Notes under the pieces: model-generated
The model's input: the letters and a program-made list of their open reading frames with translations, nothing else
Databases searched by the model: none
What the model was told of the DNA's origin: nothing
NCBI GenBank assembly: GCA_964543375.1
Contig: CAZIYD010000002.1
Location: 7,354-71,353, forward strand
Length of the DNA stretch: 64,000 nucleotides
Source of the DNA: an uncultured Muribaculaceae bacterium
Lineage (GTDB): Bacteria; Bacillota_I; Bacilli_A; RF39; UBA660
Direction of reading: 5' to 3'
Position numbers and translations under genes: made by a program
Shown here: positions 9,177 to 57,282 of the stretch, piece by piece
Layout: every line of letters begins with the position of its first letter
Position numbering within the stretch: position 1 is the stretch's first letter

Positions 9177-9178
9177 TA

Positions 9179-9258: not shown

Positions 9259-9262
9259 TTTA

Positions 9263-9291: not shown

Positions 9292-9324
9292 CATTTATTG
9301 TTTTAATCTTTAGTTGGAGAGTTT

Positions 9325-9405
9325 ATAGTTTCACGTGAAACATAGTTTATTTTATCAAATTATTTCCCGGGAAATAATTTCCTCTTAATGTTTCACGTGG
9401 AACAT
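9325..9405. repeat. composite palindromic repeat unit, copy 2
   Basis: ATAGTTTCACGTGAAACAT...ATTTCCCGGGAAAT...ATGTTTCACGTGGAACAT. Ends 2 nt from the gyrA stop codon and lies just upstream of the ffs promoter. Confidence 0.75.
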
Positions 9406-9406
9406 A

Positions 9407-11836: not shown

Positions 11837-11846
11837 ATTATCCTCC

Positions 11847-17014: not shown

Positions 17015-18028
17015 CTAACCTCTTTTCTTGACTAATACATTTTGTATTACTGTGAAAATATTTGATGCAATCCAATATAAACTTACTGCAGTTGTCATAG
17101 AAAAGGACATAAATACTATCATCACTATAAATACTGTATTCATTATATTCATTTGTTTTTGATTTTCTAAAGAAGATGAAGCACCTTTATTAAGTTTAAA
17201 TGATAGGTATGTTATTATAGCAAGAACCAGTACTATGATTATATAAAACCAAAGACCTTTTTGAATTGCAATTGTTGGTGTCATACCTAAATTAAACCCT
17301 AAAAATTTGCCTTCAAATATCGCAGGAGTTCTATTTATTGCCTCTATAAATGCAAATAATAATGGTATTTGAATTATTGCAAATAAGCAACTAGACATAG
17401 GATTAATATTATATTTTTTATATAAAAGCATAGTTTCTTGACTTTTTTTCATAACAGATTCTTGATCTGTCTTGCCTTCATATTTTTTTTCTATTTTCTT
17501 TATTTCTGGTTGTGCTTTTTTTATATTTTCAGATTGTAAAGCAGTATTTTTTGTTACAGGCATAAGTACAACTCTAATAAGAATACTTATTATTATTAAA
17601 GATAAACCATAGTTATTTAACCATGCACCAACTTTTAATATTAGCCATGCTAATGGTTTTACAAAGACAGTATCCCATAAACCTTCATATTTAGAATCTG
17701 ATAGTTTGTACTCATTACAAGCAGGTAATTTTTCTATATCTACTTTATATTTTTCATATATTTTTATTACATCTTTATTAGTGGGTTTACAAAGTATATT
17801 TTCTGTTAACATTTGACCTGTTTCGTTTGTCTTAAAAATACTACAATTATCATTGCATTCTTTTTTACAACTTTCTTTCGTGTCTTCGTTTATACATATT
17901 TCATCACATTTTTCACATAAATGAATTGCTTCATATTTTACTGGTTTTTTATCTTTATCTACTAGTGTTTTTGAGCATCCAGTTAAAACAATGACAAGAA
18001 ATAGTATTAATATTATTTTTTTATTCAT
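17015..18028 (-). CDS. yidC: membrane protein insertase YidC/OxaA with Cys-rich extracytoplasmic N-terminal extension
   Basis: 337 aa. Lipoprotein signal MNKKIILILFLVIVLTGCS, about 95-aa Cys-rich segment (10 Cys), then the 5-TM YidC core starting near GLWDTVFVKPLAWLI. Conserved position next to rnpA. Confidence 0.9.
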   Translation of the reverse strand: MNKKIILILFLVIVLTGCSKTLVDKDKKPVKYEAIHLCEKCDEICINEDTKESCKKECNDNCSIFKTNETGQMLTENILCKPTNKDVIKIYEKYKVDIEKLPACNEYKLSDSKYEGLWDTVFVKPLAWLILKVGAWLNNYGLSLIIISILIRVVLMPVTKNTALQSENIKKAQPEIKKIEKKYEGKTDQESVMKKSQETMLLYKKYNINPMSSCLFAIIQIPLLFAFIEAINRTPAIFEGKFLGFNLGMTPTIAIQKGLWFYIIIVLVLAIITYLSFKLNKGASSSLENQKQMNIMNTVFIVMIVFMSFSMTTAVSLYWIASNIFTVIQNVLVKKRG

Positions 18029-18036
18029 ATTTACCT

Positions 18037-18375
18037 CTAAAGATTTTTTAATAAATCAACAAGTTCATTTTCTTTTTCTCTATAATCTAAATTTAAGATT
18101 AAACTTCTTGCTATTATTATGTAATCCAATTTTTTTAATTTTTCTCTGTTATTATCAATTATATTTTTTAATTGACGTTTGATTTTATTTCTAACCACTG
18201 CTATTCCTATTTTTTTGGGAATAGATATACCAACTCTATATTTATCTTTTTTTTTGTCTATATAATATATTACATAGTACTTATTTTTTAATAATTTCCC
18301 GTTTTTTATTATGTTATTAAAATCTTCATTAGATTTAACTATATTTATTTTTTTCATTAATACTCCACATAACAA
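18037..18375 (-). CDS. rnpA: ribonuclease P protein component
   Basis: 112 aa. Basic protein with KYRVGISIPKKIGIAVVRNKIKRQLKN (RNR motif region). Follows rpmH. Confidence 0.92.
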   Translation of the reverse strand: MLCGVLMKKINIVKSNEDFNNIIKNGKLLKNKYYVIYYIDKKKDKYRVGISIPKKIGIAVVRNKIKRQLKNIIDNNREKLKKLDYIIIARSLILNLDYREKENELVDLLKNL

Positions 18376-18378
18376 AAA

Positions 18379-18395
18379 ACCACTAAAGTGGTGTT
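18379..18395 (-). terminator. hairpin plus U-run between rpmH and rnpA (partial terminator/attenuator)
   Basis: Minus strand ACCACTTTAGTGGTTTTTTGTT: 6-bp stem ACCACT/AGTGGT followed by a U-run. A partial terminator at this position is known in Bacillus rpmH-rnpA. Confidence 0.4.
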
Positions 18396-18524
18396 CTATT
18401 TAGTTAATTTTTTTCTTCCTTTTTTTCTTCTAGCTGAAACAACACCAGAATCTGCTTTTTTTCGAGCAAAGAATCCATGTATCTTTTTAGCTTTAGATTT
18501 ATTAGGTTGATATGTTCTTTTCAT
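18396..18524 (-). CDS. rpmH: 50S ribosomal protein L34 (ORF absent from the supplied track)
   Basis: Manual translation [42 protein letters not shown] (42 aa) is a canonical L34. RBS GGAGGAAGT precedes the ATG. Located at oriC upstream of rnpA. Confidence 0.9.
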
Positions 18525-18540
18525 ACTTCCTCCTCTTCTT

Positions 18541-18816
18541 AAAACATTATAATTATAAAGGTTAAGCATTTAAAAGTCAATTAAAAAATTATAAACATAT
18601 TAACATACTTGTTGATTAAAAATAATAGTTGTTAATTACAAAAAATATATGATTTTGTGGATAAGTGTATTCTTTTACTATAAAAACTAATAATTAGTTG
18701 TTATTAACTCTGTGGATAAGTTGTTATTAACTTGTTATTTATTATTTTGTTGTTTAATTTTTGAAGAAAATGATTTACAATATAGTTAAATTGTTTGAAA
18801 GTAGGAGGTAAATTTT
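18541..18816. promoter_or_regulatory. oriC region upstream of dnaA with DnaA boxes
   Basis: Two perfect DnaA boxes (TGTGGATAA, the complement of TTATCCACA) at 18657-18665 and 18711-18719, AT-rich flanks and the dnaA promoter region. Confidence 0.75.
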
Positions 18817-20166
18817 ATGGATGAAATAAAATTATGGGAAAATTTTTTAAATTTAATTAAAGATAAAATATCTCCTATATCATATGATACTTGGTTTAGT
18901 GATACAAAATTACATAAAATAGAAAATAAAAAGATATTTATTATAGTTCCCATGAACATTCACAAAAAAAATATTCAAGAAAATTATTCAGATTTATTAA
19001 AAGAAACTATTAACTCTTTAACAGGAACTAATTTTGAATTTATATTTTTATTAGAAGAAGAAATCAATGTTAAAGATGTAAACAATGTAGAAGAGGGTGT
19101 CCCTTTTAATAATCCTATACAAGCTAATTTAAATCCTAATTATACTTTTGATACTTTTGTTATTGGAGAAACTAATAGAATGTCATTTACTGCTGCTTTT
19201 GCGGTTGCAGAAAGACCGGGAAAAGCATATAATCCACTATTTTTATATGGTAGTAGTGGTCTTGGAAAAACTCATTTAATGCAAGCTATTGGAAATTATA
19301 TAATTGAAAATACTAATAAAAAGGTTTTATATATAACAAGTGATAAATTTAAATCAGATTTTATAGCAATAAATAAGAGAAAACATGATGAAAATAATAT
19401 AGAATATGTTGATTCTTTTAAAGAAAAATACAGAAATATAGATGTATTAATAATAGATGATATACAATTTCTAGCAGGCGCTACCGAAAGTCAAACAGAA
19501 TTTTTTCATACATTTAATGAACTTCATCAAGAAGGAAAACAAATAATAATTTCTTCAGACAGATCTCCAGATGATTTAAAATTACTAGAAGAACGTTTAA
19601 GAACTAGATTTAACTGGGGACTTGCAGTAAATATATTTCCACCTGATTATGAACTTAGAATTGAAATATTAAAGAAGAAGTTATCTGTTCACGATATAGC
19701 TAGACCTATAAAAGAAGATGTTCTTGTATTTATTGCTACCAATTGTGCTTCAGATGTAAGAAAGTTAGAAGGAGCATTAAATAGATTATTTGCTTATACA
19801 GCAATGTTTAATAAAGAAATTATAGATATTGATGTTGCTAAAGAAGCCTTAAATGATTTTTTAAGTAGTACTGAATATATAAAAAATAATATTCAAAAAA
19901 TTCAAAAAATTGTAAGTGATTTTTATCAAATAACCGTTGAAGATTTAAATTCTAAAAAAAGAAATAATAAGGTTGCTTTTCCTAGACAAGTAGCAATGTA
20001 TTTATCTAGACAATTAACAGATGAAAGTTTTCCTAGAATTGGTATAGAATTTGGGGGAAGAGATCATACAACGGTAATACATGCATGTAATAAAATTGAA
20101 CAAGAAATTAAAAATAATAAAGAATTTAAAAATACAATAGAGTTGTTGAAAAAGAAGTTAAAATAA
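18817..20166 (+). CDS. dnaA: chromosomal replication initiator protein DnaA
   Basis: 449 aa. AAA+ Walker A GSSGLGKTHL, sensor motifs, C-terminal DNA-binding helix VAMYLSRQLTDESFPRIGIEFGGRDHTTVIHA. Confidence 0.97.
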   Translation: MDEIKLWENFLNLIKDKISPISYDTWFSDTKLHKIENKKIFIIVPMNIHKKNIQENYSDLLKETINSLTGTNFEFIFLLEEEINVKDVNNVEEGVPFNNPIQANLNPNYTFDTFVIGETNRMSFTAAFAVAERPGKAYNPLFLYGSSGLGKTHLMQAIGNYIIENTNKKVLYITSDKFKSDFIAINKRKHDENNIEYVDSFKEKYRNIDVLIIDDIQFLAGATESQTEFFHTFNELHQEGKQIIISSDRSPDDLKLLEERLRTRFNWGLAVNIFPPDYELRIEILKKKLSVHDIARPIKEDVLVFIATNCASDVRKLEGALNRLFAYTAMFNKEIIDIDVAKEALNDFLSSTEYIKNNIQKIQKIVSDFYQITVEDLNSKKRNNKVAFPRQVAMYLSRQLTDESFPRIGIEFGGRDHTTVIHACNKIEQEIKNNKEFKNTIELLKKKLK

Positions 20167-20271
20167 TGTGTATAATAATAACAAAAATGGATTAAATAAA
20201 AGGAATAAATTGAATTATTCACATTATCCACTATAATAATAAAAATATAATAAAAAAGAAAGGAATATAAA
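20167..20271. promoter_or_regulatory. dnaA-dnaN intergenic AT-rich region with a DnaA box-like site (second oriC half / DUE candidate)
   Basis: TTATCCACT (8/9 match) at 20225-20233 within >85% AT sequence. Confidence 0.45.
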
Positions 20272-41988: not shown

Positions 41989-42065
41989 GGCGGCATTGGT
42001 GAAGTGGTTAACACGCTAGATTGTGGCTCTAGTATACGTGGGTTCGATTCCCACATGTCGCCCCA
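41989..42065 (+). tRNA. tRNA-His (anticodon GTG)
   Basis: Cloverleaf read manually. Extra 5' G-1 pairing with discriminator C73 (His hallmark), acceptor GCGGCAT/ATGTCGC, anticodon loop TTGTGGC giving GTG, T-arm GGTTCGATTCC, encoded CCA. Confidence 0.9.
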
Positions 42066-42175: not shown

Positions 42176-42199
42176 AAAAACGAGATTATCTCGTTTTTT
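42176..42199. terminator. bidirectional terminator hairpin
   Basis: AAAAACGAGATAATCTCGTTTTTT: palindromic stem flanked by A-run and T-run. Serves the minus-strand gene 42198-43283. Confidence 0.5.
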
Positions 42200-43283
42200 A
42201 TTTTACTGAATTATAAGTATTACCTATTTTATAATTATCTTGATATATACTCACTTCACCTAAAGTCATTGATTTAGATCTATATTGTTGTGCATATAAT
42301 ATATTTGATGTTTTTCCATCCCAATTTCTTCCAGAGTCTAATGTCCTAAAATAATATATTTGTTTTCCATTAAATAGAGTCTGTTTATTTCCGTTATACC
42401 AAAGTTCAGCAAATCCAACATTGGGATCGGTAGACATCTTCAAGTGAACAATAATGTTTTCCCATCTTAAACCCCTGGATAGTTCTGGCCCGCTCCATAC
42501 CGTTGTGTGAATTGTTCTCGTTCCGGATGTTTGAGCTGAATTAAAAACTATTCTATCATTTGAAACTCCAAATCCAATAGTAGGACTACCGCCCCAAGGG
42601 GGACCATAAACTTGCGCTACACCAAACCAATCCGTTAATTTAGGAAAATTCTCCGGAAAAAATATAGAAAAACTTATATAGTATTCTCCATTTTCCTCTA
42701 AAAGATTTCTACTTAATGTTTGTGCTCTTGGATCACTTGTTGGAGAACCACTACAAAATTCTTTTGTATCATTATCCAAAACAGTGTACATTCCTACTTT
42801 GTTATTTGGATTTAATGGATCATTTACAACACTTATTCTATTTGGACAAGATTGTTTGTGATACCACTGTGATAAATCTCCTGTTTCAAAATCAGCATTA
42901 AATAATAATTTATCAGTTATGACAGGAACTTCTACTGGCTTAACAGGTTCTTCTGGAACCATTTCTGGTTCTTGGTCTTTTGGTTTTTCTTCAATTATTG
43001 TTGGAGTAACTGGAGTTACAACATCCTCTTTAGGGGAGGTAACCGATTCTTCTTTATTGGGTATAACTGACTCCTCTTTAGTGGAATCAATTATTGTTTC
43101 TTTTTCATCTTCGGAAACAGCCTCTTTAATATTTTCGTTTTTCTCTTCTCTAATATTAGTGGATTTATTTTTATTTATATTAGAGTTCTTTTTTGATATA
43201 AGTAAAAGATTAACAGATAATATAATCAATAACATTACTGTTATTCCAACCAATATTATAATTATTTTCTTTTTATCATACAT
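42198..43283 (-). CDS. membrane-anchored secreted protein with Pro/Glu-rich linker and concanavalin-like (putative polysaccharide lyase) domain
   Basis: 361 aa. N-terminal TM IIIILVGITVMLLIILSV, PEV-rich linker, C-terminal beta-rich domain (WFGVAQVYGPPWGGSPTIGFGV, LWYNGNKQ) reminiscent of heparin-lyase-I-like/PL-type lectin folds. Family not verifiable here. Confidence 0.45.
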   Translation of the reverse strand: MYDKKKIIIILVGITVMLLIILSVNLLLISKKNSNINKNKSTNIREEKNENIKEAVSEDEKETIIDSTKEESVIPNKEESVTSPKEDVVTPVTPTIIEEKPKDQEPEMVPEEPVKPVEVPVITDKLLFNADFETGDLSQWYHKQSCPNRISVVNDPLNPNNKVGMYTVLDNDTKEFCSGSPTSDPRAQTLSRNLLEENGEYYISFSIFFPENFPKLTDWFGVAQVYGPPWGGSPTIGFGVSNDRIVFNSAQTSGTRTIHTTVWSGPELSRGLRWENIIVHLKMSTDPNVGFAELWYNGNKQTLFNGKQIYYFRTLDSGRNWDGKTSNILYAQQYRSKSMTLGEVSIYQDNYKIGNTYNSVK

Positions 43284-45841: not shown

Positions 45842-46981
45842 ATGAAAAAGAACGAAACAACTATATACTTTGTTTTGGGATTATTAATAATCTTTGCCTT
45901 TATATATTATTTTTTAGTGCAAAATAATTATAATAGTTTTATTGCAGAAACAATATATTTGATTTTTAATGGAGCAATTGCTATATTTTTATATTTTAAG
46001 TTTAATTTAAAACAAAAAAATAAAAAGTTAAATAAAGTAACTACTAGAACTATTATAATAGTTTTTATGAGCACTTTATTGGCAATATATTTAAGTGGAT
46101 TATTTTTGGGTTTTTCTAGGAGTGTATTTTTATTAAAACCATATAATATATTTCTTAACACTTATCCAGTAATACTTTCTGCTTTATTTTTAGAAGTAAT
46201 AAGATATGAGGTTGCTCAAAACTCAAGAAACAAGAACACTCTATTAATATTATTAACAATATATTTTATAGTTTTTAGTTTGGTTTTAAGTGCAAAAACA
46301 TATAGTTTTCATAACAATGAACAAATATTTAGATTTTTTTGTATATATTTTTGTCCGATTTTTGCAAAAGAAATGTTATACAGTTATTTATCATATCATG
46401 TTGGAATCAAATCAACATTTGTCTCAAGAATCATATTTGATTTATACCCGTATGTGTTTCCAATATATCCAAATTTAGGAGAATATTTGAATTGCATAAT
46501 GTTTTTGGTGATCCCTTATATTATATATGCTAAAACTAGTAATTATGTTAAATATGTTGAACAAAATAAAGAGTATAATAGTATTAATAGATGGGTAATG
46601 TTTGTACCATTATTTTTGTTTTTTTTAATAATATTTATTTTATCGTTTGGAATCACTAAATATAAGTTAATTGCTATAGCTACTGGTTCAATGAAGCCGG
46701 TATATGATAGAGGCGATACAATAATATATGAAAAAATGGGAGCAAATAATATATATGTTGGGGAAGTGTTGGCTTTCAAATATAATGGTGTTACTATTAC
46801 TCATAGAGTAGTAAGTAAGTATAAAAATGGAGAAAAGTATATTTTTAAAACAAAAGGTGATGCTAATAAAGATATTGATTTCTTTGAAGTAACAGAAAAC
46901 GAAGTTTTGGGGAAAGTAGAATTTGTTATTCCTTATATTGGGTTCCCATCAATTTTAATTAAAGATTTACTTGGTAAATAG
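45842..46981 (+). CDS. SipW-type (archaeal/ER-type, S26B) signal peptidase I fused to an N-terminal polytopic membrane domain
   Basis: 379 aa. C-terminal about 110 aa contain IAIATGSMKPVYDRGD (catalytic Ser in the SM motif) and VTITHRVV (catalytic His), as in SipW. N-terminal about 260 aa comprise 7-8 predicted TM helices. Confidence 0.7.
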   Translation: MKKNETTIYFVLGLLIIFAFIYYFLVQNNYNSFIAETIYLIFNGAIAIFLYFKFNLKQKNKKLNKVTTRTIIIVFMSTLLAIYLSGLFLGFSRSVFLLKPYNIFLNTYPVILSALFLEVIRYEVAQNSRNKNTLLILLTIYFIVFSLVLSAKTYSFHNNEQIFRFFCIYFCPIFAKEMLYSYLSYHVGIKSTFVSRIIFDLYPYVFPIYPNLGEYLNCIMFLVIPYIIYAKTSNYVKYVEQNKEYNSINRWVMFVPLFLFFLIIFILSFGITKYKLIAIATGSMKPVYDRGDTIIYEKMGANNIYVGEVLAFKYNGVTITHRVVSKYKNGEKYIFKTKGDANKDIDFFEVTENEVLGKVEFVIPYIGFPSILIKDLLGK

Positions 46982-46992
46982 GGTGATAAAAC

Positions 46993-48081
46993 ATGTCAAA
47001 AAATAAATTATTTTTAAAATATTTTTGTTTGTGTATAATAATAGTAATATTAATGCTTTTTAGTTTTTTTATGTTTAAAAAAGGTTTTAGCAATAAAGAA
47101 CAATATGTATTGTCTTACAATAAAACTTCATTAATTGATTACAAAGTGTATTTAAAAGATAATGATTTTTTTGATGTTTCGTTTTTAACTAAAGAAGAAT
47201 TAATAAGAAATAATAGATCAATAATTACAAATTTGATAGATTATTTAGAAATTAATTATAAATATGATATGAAATATTCTGATGTAGTAAAAGGAGAATA
47301 TACATATTATGTTGAATTAATATTAAAAGCTAATAAAATGAATAGTGAAGATAAAAACTATTGGGATAAAACATATCAAATAACAGAACCTAAGAAATTA
47401 ATAATTAATAATGAAAAAAATTTTGGTATTATTCAAAATGTTAAAATAGATTATGAAAAATATAATAATATTTTAGATGATTTTAAGAAGCAACAGGGTT
47501 TGGCGACAAATGGGAATTTAGAAGTAGCTCTCGTTGTTGAGTCTAATGTTAAAAACGAAAAAATAACAAAAAAAATAAATTTAAATAATAGAGAAAGTTT
47601 TAATATACCTCTTTCACAAATGGCGGTAGATGCATCTATAACTTTAGATGAAAAAGGGGAAAAAATAGGTAGTGTTAATGAAACGATTAAATCAAATGAT
47701 TTTAAATTTACAAAATATAAAATAATTGCCCTACTATCAAGTTCTTTGTCGATTACTTTTTTAATAGTATTGATAATTTTAATTAGGTACGATAGAACCT
47801 TGCGCGAGTATAGTATTAAATTAAAAAAAATATTAAGTGGTTATGATGATATTGTCGTAAATGTAAATGTACTTCCCGATGTGAGTAAATTAAACATTAT
47901 ACATGTTGAATCTTTTGCTGAGTTGTTAAATGCTCATGGTGAAGTTAGAATGCCCATTAATTGCTATATAAGTAAAAGAAAAAATAAAGCAACTTTTATA
48001 CTCATAAATGAACCTATTGCGTGGGTATATATATTAAAAGATAAAAATTTGAAAAAGAGTGATATAGATGAAAAATATTAA
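46993..48081 (+). CDS. two-TM membrane protein of unknown function (candidate assembly/anchoring factor)
   Basis: 362 aa. N-terminal TM CLCIIIVILMLFSFFMF, large middle domain, second TM IIALLSSSLSITFLIVLIILI, cytoplasmic tail. Overlaps the next gene by 14 bp. Confidence 0.5.
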   Translation: MSKNKLFLKYFCLCIIIVILMLFSFFMFKKGFSNKEQYVLSYNKTSLIDYKVYLKDNDFFDVSFLTKEELIRNNRSIITNLIDYLEINYKYDMKYSDVVKGEYTYYVELILKANKMNSEDKNYWDKTYQITEPKKLIINNEKNFGIIQNVKIDYEKYNNILDDFKKQQGLATNGNLEVALVVESNVKNEKITKKINLNNRESFNIPLSQMAVDASITLDEKGEKIGSVNETIKSNDFKFTKYKIIALLSSSLSITFLIVLIILIRYDRTLREYSIKLKKILSGYDDIVVNVNVLPDVSKLNIIHVESFAELLNAHGEVRMPINCYISKRKNKATFILINEPIAWVYILKDKNLKKSDIDEKY

Positions 48082-50398
48082 AAAAACATTTTTGTTATTA
48101 CTTTTTTTAGTTCTTTTATCATTTATTACTGTTGGATATGCATATTATACTAAATTATTGAATATTTCTGGTGTTGTTACGATTCCGAATTATGGAAAAG
48201 TATTAATTACCCAAATTAATATGATAGACAGTATGAGTGTAACCGAAAATACACCCACTGTTGTAAATGGCTTAAATTTTGATTTTAATTTAACTATTTC
48301 AGGAAACACATCACAACATTATATTACATATGCTGTTACTCTATCAAATAATTCTGTAGAGGATGTTGTTTATATAGATGCAAATATTAATTGTAACATT
48401 GTACCAAATAGTGGTGATGATACGGCAACATATAATATAGAATTAACGGGTATAAATAGTGGTGATATTATACCGGCAGGAGAGAGTGTAGTAATTCAAT
48501 CTAAAATTATATTTGAAGTAAGTAATCCAAATAATATATATGTAGCAACTGGTAGTATATCTAATGATACCAGTACTGATCAAAGTGGAACATTATTGGG
48601 TAGTATAACTGGTTCAAATACAGGGGACTTAACTGGCAGTAATACGATAACTGATTTTAATTTAAATGTTATAAATTCTTATTCTGTTAATAAAAACTTT
48701 AAAATATTTGTTACTAATTCTAGTAATTTTGAAATATGTGATGAAAACGGAACAGCAAATATTAGTTTTGATATAAATGCTAATTCTCAAGAAAATTATA
48801 CATTCTATATTAAGAAAAAAGATGGAGCGTTATTTCCGAATAATACGGAAAGTTTAAATTTAACATTAAAATCTATTGGTGTACCTAATTGTTCTTTAGG
48901 AACTATAACCATTAGTGTTGACCCATCGCCTGTAGCAGACGCTGAAGCCCCGATTATAAGTAGTGTTACAGCAAACCAAGATACAACTGTTGGGAATGTT
49001 ACTGTTGCTTGGAATGCACAAGATGACTCAACTATTACAAGTTTTACAGTAAATGTTTATAATAGTAGTGGAGTCTTACAAAAAACTGTTAATACATCTG
49101 GAGAAACAACAACTGTTATTAATAATTTAGCTGATGGCACATATTATTTTACTGTTTTTGGCACAGATACACTTGGTAATACTGCAACAGTGCAAGAAAT
49201 TGGCAATGCAACCACTTCTTCTGGGCACGCATCAAGGTCTAGTAATTTGATTTGTAAATGGACTTATACTGTTAATACATCCGGACTAAAAAATATGTCT
49301 TCTAACGGAACTTCAACGGCCAAAAAGGGAACTACATATACAGCAACTTTAACTGCTGCAAGTAACTATACTTTGCCAAACACTATAACTGTAGTAATGA
49401 ATGGTGTAACATTAACTTCTGGAAGCGGTTATTCATATGTTCAGAATACCGGAAAGTTAGACATATACAACGTTAATGGCGATATAAGTATATCTGGTAC
49501 AGCGACATCAAACACTTGTTTAGCAAAAGGAACTTTAATAAAAACATATAATGGATATAAAAAAATAGAAGATATATATTATGATGATTTATTAGAGGTG
49601 TATGATCATATAAGAGGAGTTTTTACCTATAGTTATCCAATATGGATAGAAGAAGCAAAAGAAACAGATAATTATATTTTAGTAACTTTTTCAGATAATA
49701 GTAATTTAAAAGTAGTGTCTTCACATTCGGTATTTGATGTTGATAAAAAAAGATATGTAGAAGTAAATGGTGAATTAAAAGTAAATGATCGAGTATACAA
49801 ATATAATAATGGAAAATTAGATATAGTAACAGTAAAAGGAATTAAAAAAGTTTTTGAAAACACCAAATATTATAATGTTGTAAGTTCCTATTATTATAAC
49901 ATTATAGCAAATAATCTTTTAACTACAGATTCAACATCGAGCATTTCTAACATATATGGTTTTAAAGATAATGCGATATATGATGATAATTTCTACAACA
50001 TTTCTAATGGACCCAAATTAGAATATAAAGATGTTAAAATGATCCCATATTATTTATATAAAGGACTTAATTTACAAAACGCTTTACCTTTAGTTAACAA
50101 TGGATTTAATTATGATTTCTTAACAACATTTTTAAAATTAAAAACTAAAAATCCCATTCAAATTAATAATGTTAACCATTGGATATTTAATGTTAATGGG
50201 GAAAAAATGTTAGTATCTGAAGGTAGTGTTCAAAAAGTGCCATTTACGCTTGATAAATATTATACTAAAGATAATGCTAAAAAATCATTGTTTGGATTGA
50301 GAAAACAAAAATATTATGATACTAGTAGTAATACATATTATTATTCTGGAGATAAAATAAAAATAAATCATAGTGTGTATTTAGAAAAAATAGATTGA
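48068..50398 (+). CDS. large secreted protein: SipW-cognate signal peptide, Ig/FN3-like modules, Hint (bacterial intein-like) domain and unknown about 240-aa C-terminal module
   Basis: 776 aa. Signal region with VGYAYYTK. FN3-like segment (AEAPIISSVTANQDTTVGNVTVAWNAQDDSTITSFTVNVYN...GTYYFTVFGTD). Hint block A CLAKGTLIKTYNGYKKIEDI, block B-like VVSSHSVFDV and block G-like YNIIANN. C-terminal region with no recognisable motif. Confidence 0.6.
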   Translation: MKNIKKTFLLLLFLVLLSFITVGYAYYTKLLNISGVVTIPNYGKVLITQINMIDSMSVTENTPTVVNGLNFDFNLTISGNTSQHYITYAVTLSNNSVEDVVYIDANINCNIVPNSGDDTATYNIELTGINSGDIIPAGESVVIQSKIIFEVSNPNNIYVATGSISNDTSTDQSGTLLGSITGSNTGDLTGSNTITDFNLNVINSYSVNKNFKIFVTNSSNFEICDENGTANISFDINANSQENYTFYIKKKDGALFPNNTESLNLTLKSIGVPNCSLGTITISVDPSPVADAEAPIISSVTANQDTTVGNVTVAWNAQDDSTITSFTVNVYNSSGVLQKTVNTSGETTTVINNLADGTYYFTVFGTDTLGNTATVQEIGNATTSSGHASRSSNLICKWTYTVNTSGLKNMSSNGTSTAKKGTTYTATLTAASNYTLPNTITVVMNGVTLTSGSGYSYVQNTGKLDIYNVNGDISISGTATSNTCLAKGTLIKTYNGYKKIEDIYYDDLLEVYDHIRGVFTYSYPIWIEEAKETDNYILVTFSDNSNLKVVSSHSVFDVDKKRYVEVNGELKVNDRVYKYNNGKLDIVTVKGIKKVFENTKYYNVVSSYYYNIIANNLLTTDSTSSISNIYGFKDNAIYDDNFYNISNGPKLEYKDVKMIPYYLYKGLNLQNALPLVNNGFNYDFLTTFLKLKTKNPIQINNVNHWIFNVNGEKMLVSEGSVQKVPFTLDKYYTKDNAKKSLFGLRKQKYYDTSSNTYYYSGDKIKINHSVYLEKID

Positions 50399-50481: not shown

Positions 50482-50979
50482 ATGAATAAAATAGTAGGTA
50501 GGGTATTAGTGTGCGTGTATTTATCTTTTGTGGTTATCTTATCACTATATTTATTTATGTATAGTCGTTTTGGAACATCTTCCATTGGAAAATACGTTGT
50601 TTTTAATGCTGAAAATATTAAATCATTTAGCAATGGCTCTTTAGTTGTGTCAAAGCACGAAGAAAAAGAACTAAATATAGATGATTCTATATTGTTTTAT
50701 AATGTTTATTCAACTAAAAAAGGAGTTTTAGAACAAAAAATAGTTTCTAAAGAAAAACTAAATGAAAAAGAAATAACATACGGTTTAGATAATAATAAGT
50801 TTGTTTCGAGTTCTTATGTTATAGGAAGTGTATCAAAATCTAATGCTATACCACTTCTTGGGCACATATTTAAAGTGTTGTCATCTTCTTTGGGCTATTT
50901 AATTTTTGCGCTGATTCCTACATTGTTTATGTTTGTTCTACAAGTTAGACAACTAACTAAAAAGTATAACATTAGGTGA
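50482..50979 (+). CDS. SipW-like membrane protein lacking catalytic Ser and His (predicted inactive pseudo-peptidase)
   Basis: 165 aa with N-TM and C-TM like SipW. Aligns with the canonical SipW at 55526: VVFNAENIKSF vs IFTVATGSMEP (Ser replaced), GVLEQKIVSKE vs GKVITHRVIEI (His replaced by Lys). C-terminal TM LGYLIFALIPTLFMF vs IGFYLLIVIPVAILI. Confidence 0.45.
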   Translation: MNKIVGRVLVCVYLSFVVILSLYLFMYSRFGTSSIGKYVVFNAENIKSFSNGSLVVSKHEEKELNIDDSILFYNVYSTKKGVLEQKIVSKEKLNEKEITYGLDNNKFVSSSYVIGSVSKSNAIPLLGHIFKVLSSSLGYLIFALIPTLFMFVLQVRQLTKKYNIR

Positions 50980-50982
50980 TTT

Positions 50983-51897
50983 ATGTTTGAAAAGTTAAAG
51001 AACAATAAATTAATCCTTCTAATAATTATAGTTGCTTCTCTTGGATTTTTAACTACTTTTGGAAGGTTTGTATACAATGAAATAAAGAAGAATTATTTCT
51101 TAACCCAAAATTTTTATTTTGAAAGCGACAAACTAAAAGAAAAACAAGTTTTATATAAAATAAATAACTATAATGGTGTAGATAGTTATGATATAGTTAT
51201 AAATATGAATAGTATAAAGAACAACAAAATAATAGCGAGCGAAGATATATCTTATGACATATCATATAATTGCTCTAGTAACGCAAATTGCAGTATAACA
51301 AAAACAAATGGTGTTATATATAAAGAAACAGGAACAGACTACTTTGTAATATCTATAAGTCCAAACACTACTCTTACTGATGGGAATGAAATGCTTTTGG
51401 AATTAATAGCAAGTTCTACTTCTCCATACGAAAAAACATTAAGCGCAAAGTTTCAGTTAGTAGTAGGAAACTATGGACTATCTTATGAGATAAATGATTC
51501 TGTAAATAGTCCTTATTTAGAATTAAAAGTAACAAACACTTTGGACTATTATAAAGTAAAGACAGCGTTTGGAACTTACGCCATAGATGACAAAATAGAT
51601 ATAGAAACCTATCTTACTCTAAGTGATAATGATAAAGCTAAGTGTGCATCTGCAATAATAAACTTAAGTTTTGATCCGAGTGTTGTAATATTTGATAATG
51701 CAACAGGAGTAGATGGAGAGGTTACTAATCAAACAACAACAAACATCGGAGGACATAACTATATAAATGGTATATCATTTAAAGTAGATGCAATATCATC
51801 AAGTGTAGTTAGATTTTATAAGAAAAACTCAAATAATAATTACACATATCCAATAACCAATCCAACATCTATAATCGGTGTAACATATACTTTGTAG
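50983..51897 (+). CDS. secreted/anchored beta-rich protein of unknown function
   Basis: 304 aa. N-terminal TM/signal LILLIIIVASLGFLTTFGRFVYNE (weak SipW-cognate-like TTFGRF), Ser/Thr/Asn-rich beta-type sequence. Confidence 0.5.
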   Translation: MFEKLKNNKLILLIIIVASLGFLTTFGRFVYNEIKKNYFLTQNFYFESDKLKEKQVLYKINNYNGVDSYDIVINMNSIKNNKIIASEDISYDISYNCSSNANCSITKTNGVIYKETGTDYFVISISPNTTLTDGNEMLLELIASSTSPYEKTLSAKFQLVVGNYGLSYEINDSVNSPYLELKVTNTLDYYKVKTAFGTYAIDDKIDIETYLTLSDNDKAKCASAIINLSFDPSVVIFDNATGVDGEVTNQTTTNIGGHNYINGISFKVDAISSSVVRFYKKNSNNNYTYPITNPTSIIGVTYTL

Positions 51898-51907
51898 GAG
51901 GTAAATA

Positions 51908-52876
51908 ATGAAATACAATATAGTAACAGAATATATTAATTTTGCGAAGTCTTGTGTAAACAAATATCTTAAAAAGATATTAGGTAAGTATTACAATCAA
52001 GAATATGCGAGCAGACTATTAAATGTATATATGAATTCTAGATATTTTGATATTTATTTATCTTCACAATCAAATTTAGAAGTAGATATTAGAGAAAATT
52101 TAAAGAGTTCTGCGGGTAGAATAAAGAATGAAGAAAACAAAACAGAACTAGAAAACTTGATTAAAGTTTTTGAATATATATTTTATTTTGATAACGTAGT
52201 AGAGTGCCCGTCTATAAATGAAAAAATTGATGAAATAGAAGCGTTTAGGAAAGACTCCCTAGGTATAAATAAGAACAAAAAATTTAATCAAGATCTTTTT
52301 GATACTATAAGAGATGATTTAATAAAGAAAAAAGAATACTTAGATACTGTGGAAAGTAAAAAGTTTGATTTTGATTGTACTTTAACTAATATTAAAAACT
52401 TATATGATGTGACTTTGACTCATAATTTAAAATTTCCTGTAGTATATAACTCTACAGTAATAGATAAGGTTTTTAACTCAAAAGAATTATCACAAAGAAA
52501 GGCAGTAGTAGAGTTTTCTTATGCTGCACTTAAAGTTTTAAAGGATACTATAAAGGGAAATTTTGAATACAAATATTTAGTTCAATATCCATCTGGAATA
52601 AGTAAAAAGAAAACATTAAGTAAAAAGATGTTTAGTATATTAGATAATGATATACTTAAAGATAAGATATTTATAAAGATAAATTATGATGACTTTGATA
52701 AAGAAAAAGATGAAATATATAGTTACATGAGAGAGGGATATAAGTTTGTAGTAATTTTAGAAAAGAATATAAATGTTGAAAAGATAGAATTATTATCTAT
52801 ATTTAAATATATAATGATGGATAAAAACAAAAGGATAGAAGGGTTAAATAAATTTAAAAACTTAATATTTATTTAA
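51908..52876 (+). CDS. cytoplasmic protein of unknown function, first gene of the McrB-like operon
   Basis: 322 aa, no TM or signal. 10 bp upstream of the McrB-like GTPase gene. RBS GGAGGTAAATA. Confidence 0.5.
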   Translation: MKYNIVTEYINFAKSCVNKYLKKILGKYYNQEYASRLLNVYMNSRYFDIYLSSQSNLEVDIRENLKSSAGRIKNEENKTELENLIKVFEYIFYFDNVVECPSINEKIDEIEAFRKDSLGINKNKKFNQDLFDTIRDDLIKKKEYLDTVESKKFDFDCTLTNIKNLYDVTLTHNLKFPVVYNSTVIDKVFNSKELSQRKAVVEFSYAALKVLKDTIKGNFEYKYLVQYPSGISKKKTLSKKMFSILDNDILKDKIFIKINYDDFDKEKDEIYSYMREGYKFVVILEKNINVEKIELLSIFKYIMMDKNKRIEGLNKFKNLIFI

Positions 52877-52885
52877 GGGGTATTT

Positions 52886-54406
52886 ATGGAAACATTTTTA
52901 AGATTTTTATATGAGATGCTTGCTAACTTCTTTGGAGGTTTAATTCATATATTTAAAGCAATATATGAGTCTTTTAGCATGACTTTTAATATAAAAAGTT
53001 ATATTTCCATAATAAATCACTATAAAGGAGATTTTTCTACTCCCGAATGGTTGTTAGTTGGCCTTGTAATAATAATAATGTTAGCTATAATAGTTGGAAT
53101 AATAGTATTAATAATTGTACTAGTTAGAAAGTATATGAGAATAAGAAAAACTTTGGTAGAACAAGAAACACTGCTTGAAGAAGTGGGAAATTTAAATAAA
53201 AAAGTTTTAAGTTTATCTAAAGAGAAAGATGAAATACTCGCTATGAAAGTATCTCAACTAGGATTAAAACCAGGAGAATCGCCTACCGAAGAATTACCTG
53301 AGGGAGAAGAAGTATTATCTGATGAAAACATAAGATTCTCTAAATTGCATCAAATTGATAAAGATTATATAAATTATAAAGTTCAAAATTATGGGAATAC
53401 ATTTACTTTGCCAGAACTTGTAGATATGTTTAGAAACTTTGCTGCAGCTCAACTTGGTTTATTCTACAAAGAAGAGATGATAAGATTATTTATATCTGCT
53501 CTAGCCTCTACAAAGTTAATAATACTTCAAGGTATATCTGGAACAGGTAAAACATCTTTGGCGTATGCTTGGGGAAAGTTTTTAGATAATGACTCTTGTG
53601 TTGCATCAGTTCAACCATCTTGGAGAGATAGAACAGAATTATTTGGTTACTTTAATGAGTTTACTAAAAAGTTTAATGAAACAGATGTGCTTAAAGAAAT
53701 ATATACAGCGGGTTATACCGATGATATATATACAGTAATACTAGATGAGATGAACATATCTAGAGTTGAGTACTATTTCGCAGAAATGTTATCTATATTA
53801 GAAATGCCGAATAAAGATGAGTGGATAGTTGAACTAGTATCTAGCCCATGGGATAGCGACCCTAAATATGTTAAAGGTGGTAAATTAAAAATAGTACCTA
53901 ATGTTTGGTATATAGGTACTATAAATAATGATGACTCTACATTTATGGTAACGGATAAGGTATACGATAGAGCGATGCCTATTGATATAAATGAAAAGGG
54001 TCAAGAATTTGATGCTAAAGACATTCCGGCACAACACATAAATTATACTTATTTAGATAATTTATTTGAAACTGCTATGAATACATATAGCATATCTGAT
54101 GAAACATTAAAGAAAATAGAAGAAATGGACGATTATGTAATACAACACTTTAGAATAGCATTCGGTAATCGTATTGTAAGTCATATGAAAAAATTTGTTC
54201 CAGTATATATGGCCTGTGGTGGTGATGAAATAGATGGGGTTGATTACTTCGTTGCTAGAAAAATACTTAGAAAATTTGAACAATTAAATATATCTTACAT
54301 AAGAGATGAAGTTGATGGATATGTAGATTTTCTTAATAAGACATTTGGAAAAGACAAGATGAAAGAATCTATAGAATATCTAATTAGACTTAAGAAAAAT
54401 ACATAG
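52886..54406 (+). CDS. membrane-anchored McrB-family (AAA_5) GTPase
   Basis: 506 aa. Walker A ILQGISGTGKTSLA, Walker B TVILDEMN followed by the McrB signature ISRVEYYFAEMLSILE (cf. DEINRANISKIFGELITLLE) and PNVWYIGTINNDDSTF (cf. McrB NFYIIGTMNTADRS). N-terminus has TM helix LLVGLVIIIMLAIIVGIIVLIIVLV, positive-inside RKYMRIRK, and a coiled-coil instead of a DNA-binding domain. Confidence 0.7.
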   Translation: METFLRFLYEMLANFFGGLIHIFKAIYESFSMTFNIKSYISIINHYKGDFSTPEWLLVGLVIIIMLAIIVGIIVLIIVLVRKYMRIRKTLVEQETLLEEVGNLNKKVLSLSKEKDEILAMKVSQLGLKPGESPTEELPEGEEVLSDENIRFSKLHQIDKDYINYKVQNYGNTFTLPELVDMFRNFAAAQLGLFYKEEMIRLFISALASTKLIILQGISGTGKTSLAYAWGKFLDNDSCVASVQPSWRDRTELFGYFNEFTKKFNETDVLKEIYTAGYTDDIYTVILDEMNISRVEYYFAEMLSILEMPNKDEWIVELVSSPWDSDPKYVKGGKLKIVPNVWYIGTINNDDSTFMVTDKVYDRAMPIDINEKGQEFDAKDIPAQHINYTYLDNLFETAMNTYSISDETLKKIEEMDDYVIQHFRIAFGNRIVSHMKKFVPVYMACGGDEIDGVDYFVARKILRKFEQLNISYIRDEVDGYVDFLNKTFGKDKMKESIEYLIRLKKNT

Positions 54407-54414
54407 GTGTTCTT

Positions 54415-55557
54415 ATGGATGATTTGAAGTTATTTGATTTATACAATAGATCTAACGAAAAAAAGAAGGGGGATTTTTGGAAGAATGTAGATGCTTCACT
54501 TCAAGTAGAACACAATTTTGAAAAAAATATAATAGATGATAAATGGTTACTTATGATGGAGGAGACTGTAAGATATTTAGATAATATCTTAAGAAACCCC
54601 AATAGATTTATAATAAATGAAGAAGAAATAGTAAAGATAGAACTTGCAAGAAGAATAACTGTAGACAGTATAAAACATTTATCTAAGAATACCAATTTTA
54701 TACAAGATATAGACGAAGAAAGTGGAGATGTAAAGCCATCTAAAATTTTAAATATAAATAAGGAAGAAAGCTTTAATACGTATGAAAATAGATTTATATA
54801 TAGTTTGATAAAAAACATGAGAATCTATATAGATATGAAAAAAAGAGATATGGATCTTGGTGCTAATGATAAAAGCGATAAGATAATGAATTATGAGGGA
54901 AGAACTAAGGTTGGAAAAGAAAATGTAAATATAAATGTATCTCTTAGATCAACACTGAATAAGGCAGATGATGAGAATTCTTTAGAAAAAAGAATAGAGA
55001 GATTGGAACTTAGAATAAGTGATTTAATGAATACTGATGTTTATAGGACTATAGATAAGCTTAGAATAAGTTTAGTTAACTCTCCAATAAAGAAAACAAA
55101 CTTAATATTAAAAAACACAAACTTTCAGTATGCTGTTAAACTTTGGAACTTTATCCAAGAAAATTTAAAAGATGAAACAAAAGTAGAAGCAGGGAACGAA
55201 ATTTTAAAAGATGATGAAACATTGAAAGATTTCATGGATGAGATATTTATGCTTAACTACTTCGTTGTTAATACGCTTGAAAAAGATGAACCAGAAGAAG
55301 AAAAACAAAAAAAAGTTTCCGAAGTATTAATACAAAACTTAATACAAAAGTTAATATTAACTAACAAGAACATGACAAAGGGTGATTTGAGCAAGGCTGT
55401 ATCAGAACAATATAAATTAATAAAAGATCAGACTCTTGCAACCGAAAAAGAAATCCAAGAAATATTTAAATTAGCAATAAACGAGTATAATAAATCTATA
55501 AGTAATCTAAAACTAAGGAGTACAAATGCAAAAAATAAAAGAAAACCAAATTCTTAA
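54415..55557 (+). CDS. McrC N-terminal-domain-like (DUF2357-like) partner protein, no recognisable nuclease motif
   Basis: 380 aa. Helix NTYENRFIYSLIKNM aligns with the conserved McrC N-domain segment LANRIIKSTLAIL. No hD.K / PD-(D/E)xK motif found in the C-terminal half. 8 bp downstream of the GTPase gene. Confidence 0.45.
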   Translation: MDDLKLFDLYNRSNEKKKGDFWKNVDASLQVEHNFEKNIIDDKWLLMMEETVRYLDNILRNPNRFIINEEEIVKIELARRITVDSIKHLSKNTNFIQDIDEESGDVKPSKILNINKEESFNTYENRFIYSLIKNMRIYIDMKKRDMDLGANDKSDKIMNYEGRTKVGKENVNINVSLRSTLNKADDENSLEKRIERLELRISDLMNTDVYRTIDKLRISLVNSPIKKTNLILKNTNFQYAVKLWNFIQENLKDETKVEAGNEILKDDETLKDFMDEIFMLNYFVVNTLEKDEPEEEKQKKVSEVLIQNLIQKLILTNKNMTKGDLSKAVSEQYKLIKDQTLATEKEIQEIFKLAINEYNKSISNLKLRSTNAKNKRKPNS

Positions 55558-56107
55558 ATATTTGTGGAAAACAATAAAAATAATTGTGACATTATTTATT
55601 TTAATTATTATAGGTATAATAATAACTCAAAGAATATTTAATAATAATGTTTCTGTTTTGGGCTACAGGATATTCACGGTTGCAACTGGAAGTATGGAAC
55701 CTGAATATAAGGTTATGGATATACTATTTGTAAAAGAATCAAAAGAATCTCAAATAAAAGTAGGAGATGATGTAGTATATTTAGGAAAAGGTGGAACTTT
55801 TGATGGAAAAGTAATAACGCACAGAGTAATAGAGATAGAAAAAGAAAATGATATAGTGTCATTTCATACAAAGGGTATTGCAAATGATATAGAGGATCCA
55901 ATTGTCTACTATGATCAAATATACGGTAAAGTAATATACAAAGGAGTAGTACTTAGTTTTGTTAATAAAATAATAAACAACCCAATAGGCTTTTATTTAC
56001 TTATAGTAATACCCGTTGCAATCTTAATAACGCTCGAAATAATAGATAGAAAAAAAGAAAAAGATGAAAAAATAATAGAAGAGGAAATATTAGATTTAGA
56101 TGAATAA
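55526..56107 (+). CDS. sipW: signal peptidase I, SipW type (S26B)
   Basis: 193 aa. N-TM, RIFTVATGSMEPEYKVMD (Ser-Met), KVITHRVIEI (His), C-terminal TM IGFYLLIVIPVAILITL plus basic tail: canonical SipW architecture. RBS CTAAGGAG. Confidence 0.8.
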   Translation: MQKIKENQILKYLWKTIKIIVTLFILIIIGIIITQRIFNNNVSVLGYRIFTVATGSMEPEYKVMDILFVKESKESQIKVGDDVVYLGKGGTFDGKVITHRVIEIEKENDIVSFHTKGIANDIEDPIVYYDQIYGKVIYKGVVLSFVNKIINNPIGFYLLIVIPVAILITLEIIDRKKEKDEKIIEEEILDLDE

Positions 56108-56702
56108 AAAAAATGATGCAGTTATAAAAACTTTAAAGAAAAGTATGCGTCTGAAAGTTTTACTTTTATTAGCAATAATATTGACTTTCAATACTTTTGC
56201 GTGGTTTATATATTCATCTGCTGTATCTAATAGCATAACTACATCAGTTAGAGCTTGGAAGATAGAATTTGAAAATGATAGCCAAACAACGCAATATATA
56301 GAGTTTGATATAGATGATTTATATCCGGGAATGCCAGAATATAATAACTATATAAACGTAGTTAATTATGGTGAAACAGCGGCAACACTAACTTATGAAA
56401 TTATGAGCTTCAAGGTTTTGGGAACCGAATATACTAATCCGCCAGAAACAACTGGTGATCTTGAAAATATTATTGAAAATAATTACCCATTTAAAATAAA
56501 TCTAAATCTTACTAATTCAGACTTAACTCCAGAAAGTGGATCTTCAGAGTTTACAATAAATGTGAAATGGCCATTTGAAAGTGGGGATGATGAAGAAGAT
56601 ACCCTATGGGGACATAGAGCATATACTTATAAGCAAGAAAATCCAACTTTAAAGCAAATATCTATTAATATAAAACTTACTGCAAATCAAGTTAATCCGT
56701 GA
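56100..56702 (+). CDS. secreted protein with SipW-cognate signal peptide (paralog of 45241 and 56692 genes)
   Basis: 200 aa. Signal LLLLAIILTFNTFAWFIYSS, then RAWKIEFEND matching AKWDVSFDTAS (45241 gene) and ARWQISIND (56692 gene). Confidence 0.6.
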   Translation: MNKKNDAVIKTLKKSMRLKVLLLLAIILTFNTFAWFIYSSAVSNSITTSVRAWKIEFENDSQTTQYIEFDIDDLYPGMPEYNNYINVVNYGETAATLTYEIMSFKVLGTEYTNPPETTGDLENIIENNYPFKINLNLTNSDLTPESGSSEFTINVKWPFESGDDEEDTLWGHRAYTYKQENPTLKQISINIKLTANQVNP

Positions 56703-57282
56703 TTTGTTTGAACTTTATAGCAACATTTAAAATTGCTTTCCCTTGATTTATCGCAGCTGTAGTATCTGCGCTGTTGTTCATGTTCTCCTCATCGAAATCT
56801 TCCCATGTTATATAAACTCTTATACTGTTAGTCCTGTTTGTATTTGTTATTAGTATGTCTTTATCTATATTGGTCATGTTACCATTTACTGGAATAATTG
56901 CACCCCCATTTTCAGAATAACCAGTAACCTTTAAATCAGAAACTTCACTACTTGTCGATATACTTGTTGTTATTCCATAATTGAATGATACATCGACGTT
57001 TGTATAGTTTAAAATTAAATCAAAATAACCTAAAGATTGTGGAGCAATTACACCGTCCTTTACATTTGGATTATTCAATAAAGTTGGAGTTATTACATTA
57101 GTAATATATGAATCTGTAATTATATCTTGATCATTTATTGATATTTGCCATCTAGCAATGTTTACACTTGCTTGTCCTTCTGCCTCCGTGTTATATTTAG
57201 CATATGTTTCCTGCACAAAAGATATTAAAACGAAAAGAGATAAGAATGCAACTACTAATTTTAAATTTTTAAAGTTAAACAT
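56692..57282 (-). CDS. secreted protein with TasA-class signal (paralog of 45241 and 56100 genes), convergent and overlapping with 56100 gene
   Basis: 196 aa. MFNFKNLKLVVAFLSLFVLISFVQETYAKYNTEAEGQASVNIARWQISIND, beta-rich C-terminus. 3' ends overlap by 11 bp with the plus-strand gene. Confidence 0.5.
   Translation of the reverse strand: MFNFKNLKLVVAFLSLFVLISFVQETYAKYNTEAEGQASVNIARWQISINDQDIITDSYITNVITPTLLNNPNVKDGVIAPQSLGYFDLILNYTNVDVSFNYGITTSISTSSEVSDLKVTGYSENGGAIIPVNGNMTNIDKDILITNTNRTNSIRVYITWEDFDEENMNNSADTTAAINQGKAILNVAIKFKQITD

Follow-up and report, generated by a model that had tools for sequence, protein, structure and literature searches.

A membrane-tethered McrB-like GTPase and its nuclease-less McrC-like partner, a CoCoPALM pair in a probable SipW-type surface-fibre locus of gut Bacillota

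CoCoPALM is the name given by Bell et al. (2024, eLife, PMC11090510) to systems in which a McrB-like GTPase of the NxD branch, bearing a transmembrane (TM) and coiled-coil domain, occurs with a McrC homologue and is linked to a signal peptidase. The description there comprises two sentences and a supplementary figure; the NxD branch is a large one, the N-terminal domain is regarded as homologous to FtsB, and a link to pilus assembly is proposed, with analysis deferred to a later paper. The CoCoNuTs, the sister clade, have long cytoplasmic coiled coils, no TM segment and a HEPN domain or other nuclease always in association. A literature search found no CoCoPALM follow-up paper, the supplementary files searched (PMC11090510) contained no mention of CoCoPALM, FtsB or pilus, and the sole co-occurrence of SipW, TasA and McrB in the literature searched was an E. 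coli strain genotype. The present work concerns a pair of genes encoding such a GTPase and its McrC-like partner in a 64,000-nt stretch of DNA (the window) from an uncultured Muribaculaceae bacterium (GTDB RF39; UBA660; assembly GCA_964543375.1, contig CAZIYD010000002.1, positions 7,354-71,353). The locus is a CoCoPALM member, a McrBC derivative that has lost the DNA-binding domain and the nuclease and is probably a fixed component of a SipW-dependent surface-fibre or adhesin operon of gut Bacillota. The original prediction, made from the DNA letters, had found no match to any described system; this claim of novelty does not hold, as both the name of the class and the proposed link to pilus assembly had been published in 2024. 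Confirmation of the NxD signature, a five-gene core, two gene orders and an EAL-like partner are the additions made here, and the upstream EAL-like gene, the two gene orders and the paralogous subunit set do not appear in the available part of the published text (PMC11090510).

Four consecutive open reading frames (ORFs) on the + strand, of 322, 506, 380 and 193 aa, contain the pair and its immediate neighbours, and their main features are as follows.
51908..52876, + strand: cytoplasmic 322-aa protein (gene g), N-terminal helical domain followed by a degenerate EAL-like beta/alpha domain at aa ~150-322
52886..54406, + strand: McrB-like AAA+ GTPase, 506 aa, with ~54 extracytoplasmic residues, a single TM helix, a short linker of charged, helical character and an NxD-class core
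53048..53125, + strand: TM helix of the GTPase, aa ~55-80, maximum Kyte-Doolittle 19-residue mean 3.79, with RKYMRIRK directly after it
53531..53557, + strand: Walker A GISGTGKTS of the GTPase, aa 216-224; G216, G219, G221, K222 and T223 invariant in 27/27 relatives
53915..53941, + strand: McrB signature GTINNDDST of the GTPase, aa 344-352, shortened NxD type; N347 and D349 invariant
54415..55557, + strand: McrC-like partner, 380 aa, with a McrC N-terminal (DUF2357) domain and a helical C-terminal region, nuclease-less
54571..54852, + strand: DUF2357 match of the partner, aa 53-146, its best-conserved part and the presumed 'finger' entering the GTPase hexamer
55526..56107, + strand: SipW-type (archaeal/ER-type) signal peptidase I; TIGR02228 77.2 bits against a cut-off of 51.85, NF046067 E 1e-21

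The product of 52886-54406 had been assigned to the McrB/AAA_5 GTPases by its core motifs, and this assignment holds: all of the motifs are present as quoted, and McrB is the best match in both the PDB and NCBIfam. Besides the segments listed above, the core contains the Walker B motif VILDEMN (aa 284-290), FAEMLSILE (aa 298-306) and NVWYIGTINNDD (aa 339-350). The only PDB matches above noise are McrB structures (6ut6, 7vsr and 6hz4; E ~2e-4), and NCBIfam McrB, the best family for the query (E 7e-6), matches 18 of 27 diverse family members, as does Pfam AAA_5. With 25 bits, the NCBIfam McrB match stays far below the equivalog cut-off (637 bits), which marks the protein as a distant member of the McrB family and not an orthologue. 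MoxR, which had been named as the identity to be set against McrB in a profile check, is absent from the family matches listed, and identity as MoxR or another AAA+ protein was ruled out by the McrB-only PDB matches and the NCBIfam results.

Conservation was assessed over 27 relatives with 32-83% identity. In addition to the Walker A and signature residues, invariant positions comprise D287-E-x-N290-x-x-R293-x-E295, G344-T345-x-N347-x-D349-x-S351-T352, Y360/R362 and G427/R429. Position 350 is variable (D in 22 relatives, E in four and Q in one), and the motif GT[AI]NxD[DE]ST is found in most of the top 150 GTPase representatives, in agreement with the definition of the NxD branch by Bell et al. 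An NxxD signature, which an alignment with E. coli McrB suggested, was ruled out, since the invariant Asp lies at +2 from the Asn and +3 is variable. It follows from the invariance of the catalytic motifs in the 27 relatives that selection maintains the protein as an active NTPase.

At the N-terminus, the TM helix with a positive-inside flank that had been proposed was found, and together with RKYMRIRK it gives an N-out/C-in topology, with the GTPase cytoplasmic and ~54 N-terminal residues outside. The closest ~500-aa representatives carry a TM helix at the equivalent position; relatives of 550-700 aa with four or five TM helices also occur among the representatives. No DNA-binding domain was detected in the N-terminal 190 aa by Pfam or NCBIfam, in agreement with the original prediction, and this segment consists of the extracytoplasmic part, the TM helix and the linker. 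The coiled-coil linker stood in part only: aa ~85-127 form a short amphipathic helix with 35% charged residues, but a crude heptad scan did not flag it, and an FtsL-like match is weak.

That match bears on the possibility that an FtsB/FtsL-like N-terminus brings the GTPase to the divisome or to growth sites, the fibre genes being merely co-regulated. Such an envelope or division role would accord with the FtsB homology stated by Bell et al. (PMC11090510), and a hidden Markov model (HMM) of FtsL_Actino gives one weak match to aa 57-133 (E 0.009), while the DivIC and FtsL_2 HMMs each match one of the 27 family members, marginally. These signals are near noise and may reflect a generic TM helix followed by an amphipathic helix, and the conserved neighbours include no division or cell-wall genes, all of them being secreted, signal-anchored or signal peptidases. 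A role in division is therefore most improbable.

The gene that begins 8 nt downstream, 54415-55557, had been predicted to encode a McrC N-domain, which is borne out by a match to Pfam DUF2357 that exceeds the gathering threshold (E 1.4e-12). When 38 relatives are aligned, the positions without variation concentrate at aa 58-129 and include the T122-x-x-N125-R126 helix, which belongs to the motif TYENRFIYSLI at aa 122-132. The partner was also predicted to be without a nuclease, and it is regarded as such because no invariant D...(D/E)xK pattern occurs in its C-terminal 230 residues among these relatives and this region is modelled as helices. In the monomer model, aa 67-117 have a low predicted local distance difference test score (pLDDT), which would fit a segment that becomes ordered only in a complex. 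Clostridia-type partners are longer, at 703-724 aa (11569-13743 in locus L057 and 11549-13660 in locus L079), and their additional ~370 aa, roughly the C-terminal half, form an extremely charged helix of KEKER/AKEKA repeats with no enzyme domain, which may exist as a single alpha-helix or form a coiled coil.

The pair resembles canonical McrBC of E. coli and T. gammatolerans (6hz4, 6ut6, 6ut5) in the AAA+ core, Walker A and B, the position of the signature and the McrC N-terminal domain, and activation of a hexamer by a finger is, by analogy, probably common to both. It differs in having a TM helix in place of the DNA-binding domain, in the absence of the NxxD signature and of the PD-(D/E)xK nuclease, and in lying outside the restriction/defence context of canonical McrBC. 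The NxD branch is shared with the CoCoNuTs, whose McrC homologues are often nuclease-less, and the closest TM-less relatives of the GTPase, of 700-870 aa, have a CoCoNuT-like look; the locus differs from CoCoNuTs in its TM helix and in that Pfam and NCBIfam detected no nuclease, HEPN or other effector domain in its genes. With CoCoPALM, the locus has in common the NxD motif, the TM helix, the adjacent nuclease-less DUF2357 partner, the tight association with a signal peptidase and the host group Bacillota. Of the FtsB-like domain of CoCoPALM, the TM helix is clearly present, whereas the linker is unflagged and the FtsL/DivIC matches are weak, as described above. The McrC homologue of CoCoPALM is 'usually' coiled-coil, which can be compared with the ~370-aa charged helix of the Clostridia-type relatives, while the coiled coils of the Bacilli-type member here are short. 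Nothing contradicts membership.

The signal peptidase was confirmed as a canonical sipW overlapping the 3' end of the McrC-like gene; the overlap is 32 nt, and the gap between the 322-aa gene and the GTPase gene is 9 nt. The surrounding genes form a compact + strand run at 50482-56702, followed by one - strand gene at 56692-57282, after which the + strand run resumes: 57484-58191, then 58194-59162, and from 59183 onwards a giant ORF that extends past the end of the window. Scans of 44.5-60 kb are uninformative in DNA of 26% GC: promoter-like sites number 130 where 116 +/- 10 would be expected and terminator-like sites four where 3.5 would be, both at chance level. In the terminator scan, no terminator-like site breaks the + strand run at 50.4-56.6 kb, and the 322-aa, GTPase, McrC-like and SipW genes probably share a transcript. 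The genes around these four are as follows.
45842..48081, + strand: second signal peptidase I (SPase I) with a multi-TM N-terminus (379 aa; TIGR02228 80.7 bits) and a DUF5305 protein (362 aa; E 1.8e-10)
50482..51897, + strand: genes e (165 aa) and f (304 aa, signal-anchored), preceding the EAL-like gene in Bacilli-type loci
56100..56702, + strand: secreted subunit k, 200 aa; SPase-I signal ending ...FAWF, with A34, W35 and F36 invariant in the family
56692..57282, - strand: secreted subunit l, 196 aa; signal ending ...TYAKY, position and orientation kept in 51 loci
57484..58191, + strand: protein m, 235 aa, signal-anchored; TM helix at aa 16-54 strong (Kyte-Doolittle 3.43), AWF motif absent
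58194..59162, + strand: secreted subunit n, 322 aa, candidate major subunit; signal ending ...TYAWFS, with A27 and W28 invariant
59183..64000 (past the window end), + strand: giant surface protein, >1,605 aa; N-terminal TM/signal and YGGxN beta-helix-like repeats

These genes recall SipW/TasA-superfamily loci (B. subtilis tapA-sipW-tasA; archaeal AbpA, AbpX and Tafi) in the dedicated SipW-type SPase I and in the several secreted paralogues, which have a conserved aromatic cleavage-site motif. Both peptidases, 55526-56107 and 45842-46981, score over the TIGR02228 cut-off and have the catalytic GSMEP/GSMKP and THR motifs. In k, l and n, the signal closes with a conserved (S/T)(Y/F)A motif, after which comes WF or KY, in keeping with cleavage by SPase I; this region resembles the processing region of TasA and camelysin. 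Comparison by hhalign showed k and l to be full-length paralogues (95.8%, E 7.6e-9) and k, l and n to have the signal region in common. It also revealed a C-terminal motif common to m and n, (V/I)Y.W.EG.D.DC..N (94.7%), which could be a metal-binding or interaction site; the residues of this motif invariant in the n family are R290, Y292, W294, E296, G297 and D299. Protein m, whose gene is always directly ahead of n, has a long, uncleaved-looking TM anchor and may serve a fibre as its base or anchor in the membrane. Subunit n is present in both Bacilli-type and Clostridia-type loci, and its family profile has no relevant match in the PDB. Gene e encodes a protein with TM helices at the N- and C-terminus and weak SipW similarity (NF046067 E 0.007) without the GSM(E/K)P motif, which may be a pseudo-peptidase subunit; e and f, with intergenic gaps of 3 and 10 nt, are each kept in 42/80 loci.

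The N-terminal domain of the second SPase I contains about six hydrophobic segments. A multi-TM SPase I and a DUF5305 protein are described as usual accessories of TasA-superfamily (AbpX, Tafi) loci (bioRxiv 10.64898/2026.01.04.697558), with which the present locus agrees in this respect. Between these genes and gene e lies 48068-50398 (+ strand), encoding a 776-aa signal-bearing protein (CLAKGTLIKTYNG...) with Fn3/Ig-like matches and, more weakly, a match to an intein/Hint N-terminus (TIGR01445 E 0.069); it is missing from L001 and L003, two near-identical contigs that share the locus, and the slot is variable.

Whether homologues keep this arrangement was surveyed in the best 80 species-level loci, where every ORF was searched with each gene of the window locus. 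A word-indexed search with the GTPase returned 8,000 proteins, of which the 120th match is still ~71% identical; an exhaustive search of cluster representatives gave 757 GTPase clusters at 50% identity (E <= 1e-30), and in GTDB, with each species represented by a single genome, at least 592 relatives were confirmed. Among the matches listed, the closest species-level relative is a 'Mollicutes bacterium' metagenome-assembled genome (MAG) with 82% identity. The best 80 loci all come from Bacillota MAGs of human or animal gut or rumen, mostly uncultured, labelled as Bacilli, Mollicutes, Tenericutes or Erysipelotrichaceae and otherwise as Clostridia (Acutalibacteraceae, Oscillospiraceae, Ruminococcus sp. 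CAG:488). The McrC-like gene follows the GTPase gene in 78/80 loci, both exceptions being contig ends, and a SipW-type gene is present in 77/80, the three exceptions being short contigs. Two gene orders were found: e-f-g-GTPase-McrC-SipW-k-l(-)-m-n-giant in Bacilli-type loci, and m-n-SipW-GTPase-McrC in Clostridia-type loci, at times followed by a giant ORF. A five-gene core of m, n, SipW, GTPase and McrC-like is thus kept through the rearrangement, and its occurrence together in both orders is good evidence of a functional unit.

The chromosomal setting is that of core genes, as the window contains dnaA, dnaN, gyrB, gyrA, mfd, mnmG and dnaB. The signs of GC-skew and AT-skew flip at ~18.5 kb of the window, and ~18000-20200 is probably the chromosomal replication origin; from the skew switch and dnaA, the fibre locus is placed ~27-45 kb from the origin. 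The genes dnaA (18817-20166) and dnaN lie on one side of the switch and divergent genes on the other, and gyrB and gyrA are at 9.4-13.8 kb. Just upstream of the fibre locus, on the opposite strand, 42198-43283 encodes a member of a polysaccharide lyase family (PF14099 E 3e-18), the N-terminus of which is hydrophobic and Pro-rich, beside tRNA-His (41990-42065).

The synteny and setting bear on the two functions between which the original prediction had left the choice, namely (a) defence and (b) the recruitment of an NTPase to the assembly or secretion of fibre proteins that SipW processes. A defence or abortive-infection module would consist of a tethered McrBC-like pair that senses phage, for example phages with the fibre as receptor, and kills or arrests the cell via a membrane output or an unrecognised effector. 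Its appeal lies in ancestry, since the GTPase derives from McrBC restriction and the CoCoNuTs are predicted to be defensive by Bell et al. (PMC11090510). In addition, the GTPase core matches the PADLOC candidate family PDC-M26A (E 3e-35), and plasmids and a few viral contigs carry distant relatives that match in the core only. However, the PDC-M26A match spans only aa 189-314 of the core, the partner has no PADLOC match, and the locus yielded neither a nuclease nor a HEPN domain, a pore-former or any other effector. A literature search for 'PDC-M26' found nothing, and PHROGs gave nothing relevant for the locus proteins. Defence genes are patchy and turn over fast, whereas this GTPase is very highly conserved and its synteny with the fibre genes is fixed in two orders. 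The locus also lies in the core chromosome near the origin, and full-length copies of the GTPase were found on no plasmid, phage or IMG/VR record, where only core matches of distant relatives occur; an origin of the full-length GTPase in mobile elements was ruled out accordingly. Because of the near-universal synteny, the high conservation, the core-chromosome location and the lack of full-length copies on mobile elements, a fibre role is favoured over defence. Option (b) is thus the better supported of the two, nothing found favours option (a), and a defence function is considered improbable.

A closer competitor arises from the giant proteins. In this alternative, the pair would serve the export, anchoring or quality control of a giant surface protein, and the link to SipW would be secondary. 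The giant ORF of the window (59183-64000) contains dozens of YGG(G/S)N-type repeats, suggesting a beta-helix, and has no Pfam or NCBIfam match. Homologous giant ORFs flank 30/80 loci, a count partly limited by contig ends, and in L057 a 2,391-aa ORF directly follows the McrC-like gene. In locus L087 (a contig of ENA ERZ15610534), a GTPase relative with two TM helices occurs twice at 4692-12923, in the order GTPase, McrC-like (604 aa, profile-confirmed), GTPase and an unassigned 1,141-aa protein, and this cluster is flanked by a 1,670-aa leucine-rich repeat (LRR) protein and a >2,193-aa protein, with SipW undetected. However, L087 is a single example, giant proteins are common beside any surface-structure operon, and adjacency to SipW and m/n is far steadier (77/80, in both orders) than adjacency to the giant ORF (30/80). 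The giant protein as the principal client is therefore unlikely, although less so than defence.

The 322-aa protein encoded upstream of the GTPase gene had been described as a cytoplasmic unknown 10 bp away; the cytoplasmic location stands, the gap needs the correction by one nucleotide given above, and a fold can now be suggested. Its model (pLDDT 82.9, predicted template modelling score 0.80) has an EAL-like fold, with LapD and FimX as the best structural matches. This likeness is at the level of the predicted fold: no Pfam (no EAL even at E 0.1), NCBIfam, PADLOC or PHROG match was found, the family profile gave only noise against the PDB, and sequence similarity to FimX/LapD is undetectable. 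Of the 240-250 EAL residues, ~155 align, the barrel seems truncated, and unlike FimX and LapD the protein is without GGDEF, PAS or HAMP modules. By approximate mapping, the catalytic residues that an active phosphodiesterase of cyclic di-GMP (c-di-GMP) has (EAL Glu, Asn, Glu, Asp-Asp, Lys, Glu) are not reproduced. As aa 150-322 contain just two invariant acidic residues, D186 and E202, both in predicted helices, activity as a phosphodiesterase is unlikely. The protein has just 19 detectable relatives; by family profile, its gene is immediately upstream of the GTPase gene in 48/77 loci, a divergent ~350-aa ORF fills the slot in six more, and SipW occupies it in 22 Clostridia-type loci. LapD and FimX, both of which have degenerate EAL domains, are c-di-GMP receptors that control adhesin retention and pilus assembly, and FimX regulates the type IV pilus ATPase. 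For the 322-aa protein, the FimX parallel is an analogy and not evidence.

Taken with the fibre genes, namely the paralogous subunits with SPase-I signals and, as TasA-superfamily loci also have, an SPase I accompanied by a DUF5305 protein, here the second SPase I of the locus, the CoCoPALM pair is considered to act in fibre or adhesin biogenesis, with a probability of about 0.6. The evidence speaks to linkage and not to mechanism, for which the following scheme can be drawn. If it works as the homologous McrBC does (Nirwan et al. 2019, PMC6624300; Niu et al. 2020, PMC7680126), the 506-aa protein would form a McrB-like hexameric GTPase ring at the cytoplasmic face of the membrane, and the DUF2357 'finger' of the 380-aa partner would enter the ring and stimulate GTP hydrolysis, as McrC does for McrB. 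Six TM helices and short helical stalks would tether the ring, with ~50 residues of each subunit outside the cell. GTP-driven shape changes might then travel via the stalk and the TM bundle, and the movements would drive or gate the transfer of the signal-anchored k, l and n, and possibly the giant adhesin, to SipW. The cleaved subunits would polymerise on the anchor protein m, and in Bacilli-type loci the degenerate EAL-like protein may be a regulatory input. In full, this would be a restriction-derived hexameric GTPase machine that drives or gates SipW processing and the polymerisation of TasA-like subunits and a giant adhesin, under EAL-like control by a nucleotide second messenger in Bacilli and parallel to FimX but built from unrelated parts; so specific a scheme is put forward only tentatively, and the chances are against its being correct in all of its parts.

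Several points weigh against a role of the pair in fibre or adhesin biogenesis. Characterised SipW/TasA systems, such as those of B. subtilis (tapA-sipW-tasA) and C. perfringens (sipW-bsa), are not known to need a GTPase of this kind, and no characterised TasA-type locus is known to have a cytoplasmic NTPase. Donor-strand polymerisation proceeds without cytoplasmic energy, and the need for a motor is therefore unexplained. Threading or translocation through the ring is unlikely, because McrC plugs the pore of the ring in McrBC. The signs of a TasA fold in the subunits are suggestive, with the k profile sub-threshold against AbpX (E 0.27-0.33) and a weak Peptidase_M73 match in one of 21 k-family members (E 0.022). 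The confidence of the partner model is moderate (pLDDT 66.7), the FtsB/FtsL homology of the GTPase N-terminus is barely detectable (one of 27 members), and its coiled coil is short. In L087, SipW was not detected with the two-TM GTPases and their McrC-like partner, and as that pair lies beside giant proteins, it keeps a giant adhesin as the client in consideration. Finally, any function of CoCoPALM is a proposal and not an experimental result.

If the pair does act in fibre or adhesin biogenesis, a defence enzyme of the McrBC type would have been turned into a cell-surface assembly device, and the GTPase would be the first component dependent on nucleoside triphosphate (NTP) among SipW/TasA fibres, the assembly of which is thought to be free of cytoplasmic energy. 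Knowledge of the five core genes, of both gene orders and of the EAL-like partner should help in the design of experiments. Given at least 592 species-level relatives, and the gut or rumen origin of all of the best 80 loci, the system is probably a major determinant of how the gut microbiota adheres or forms biofilms.

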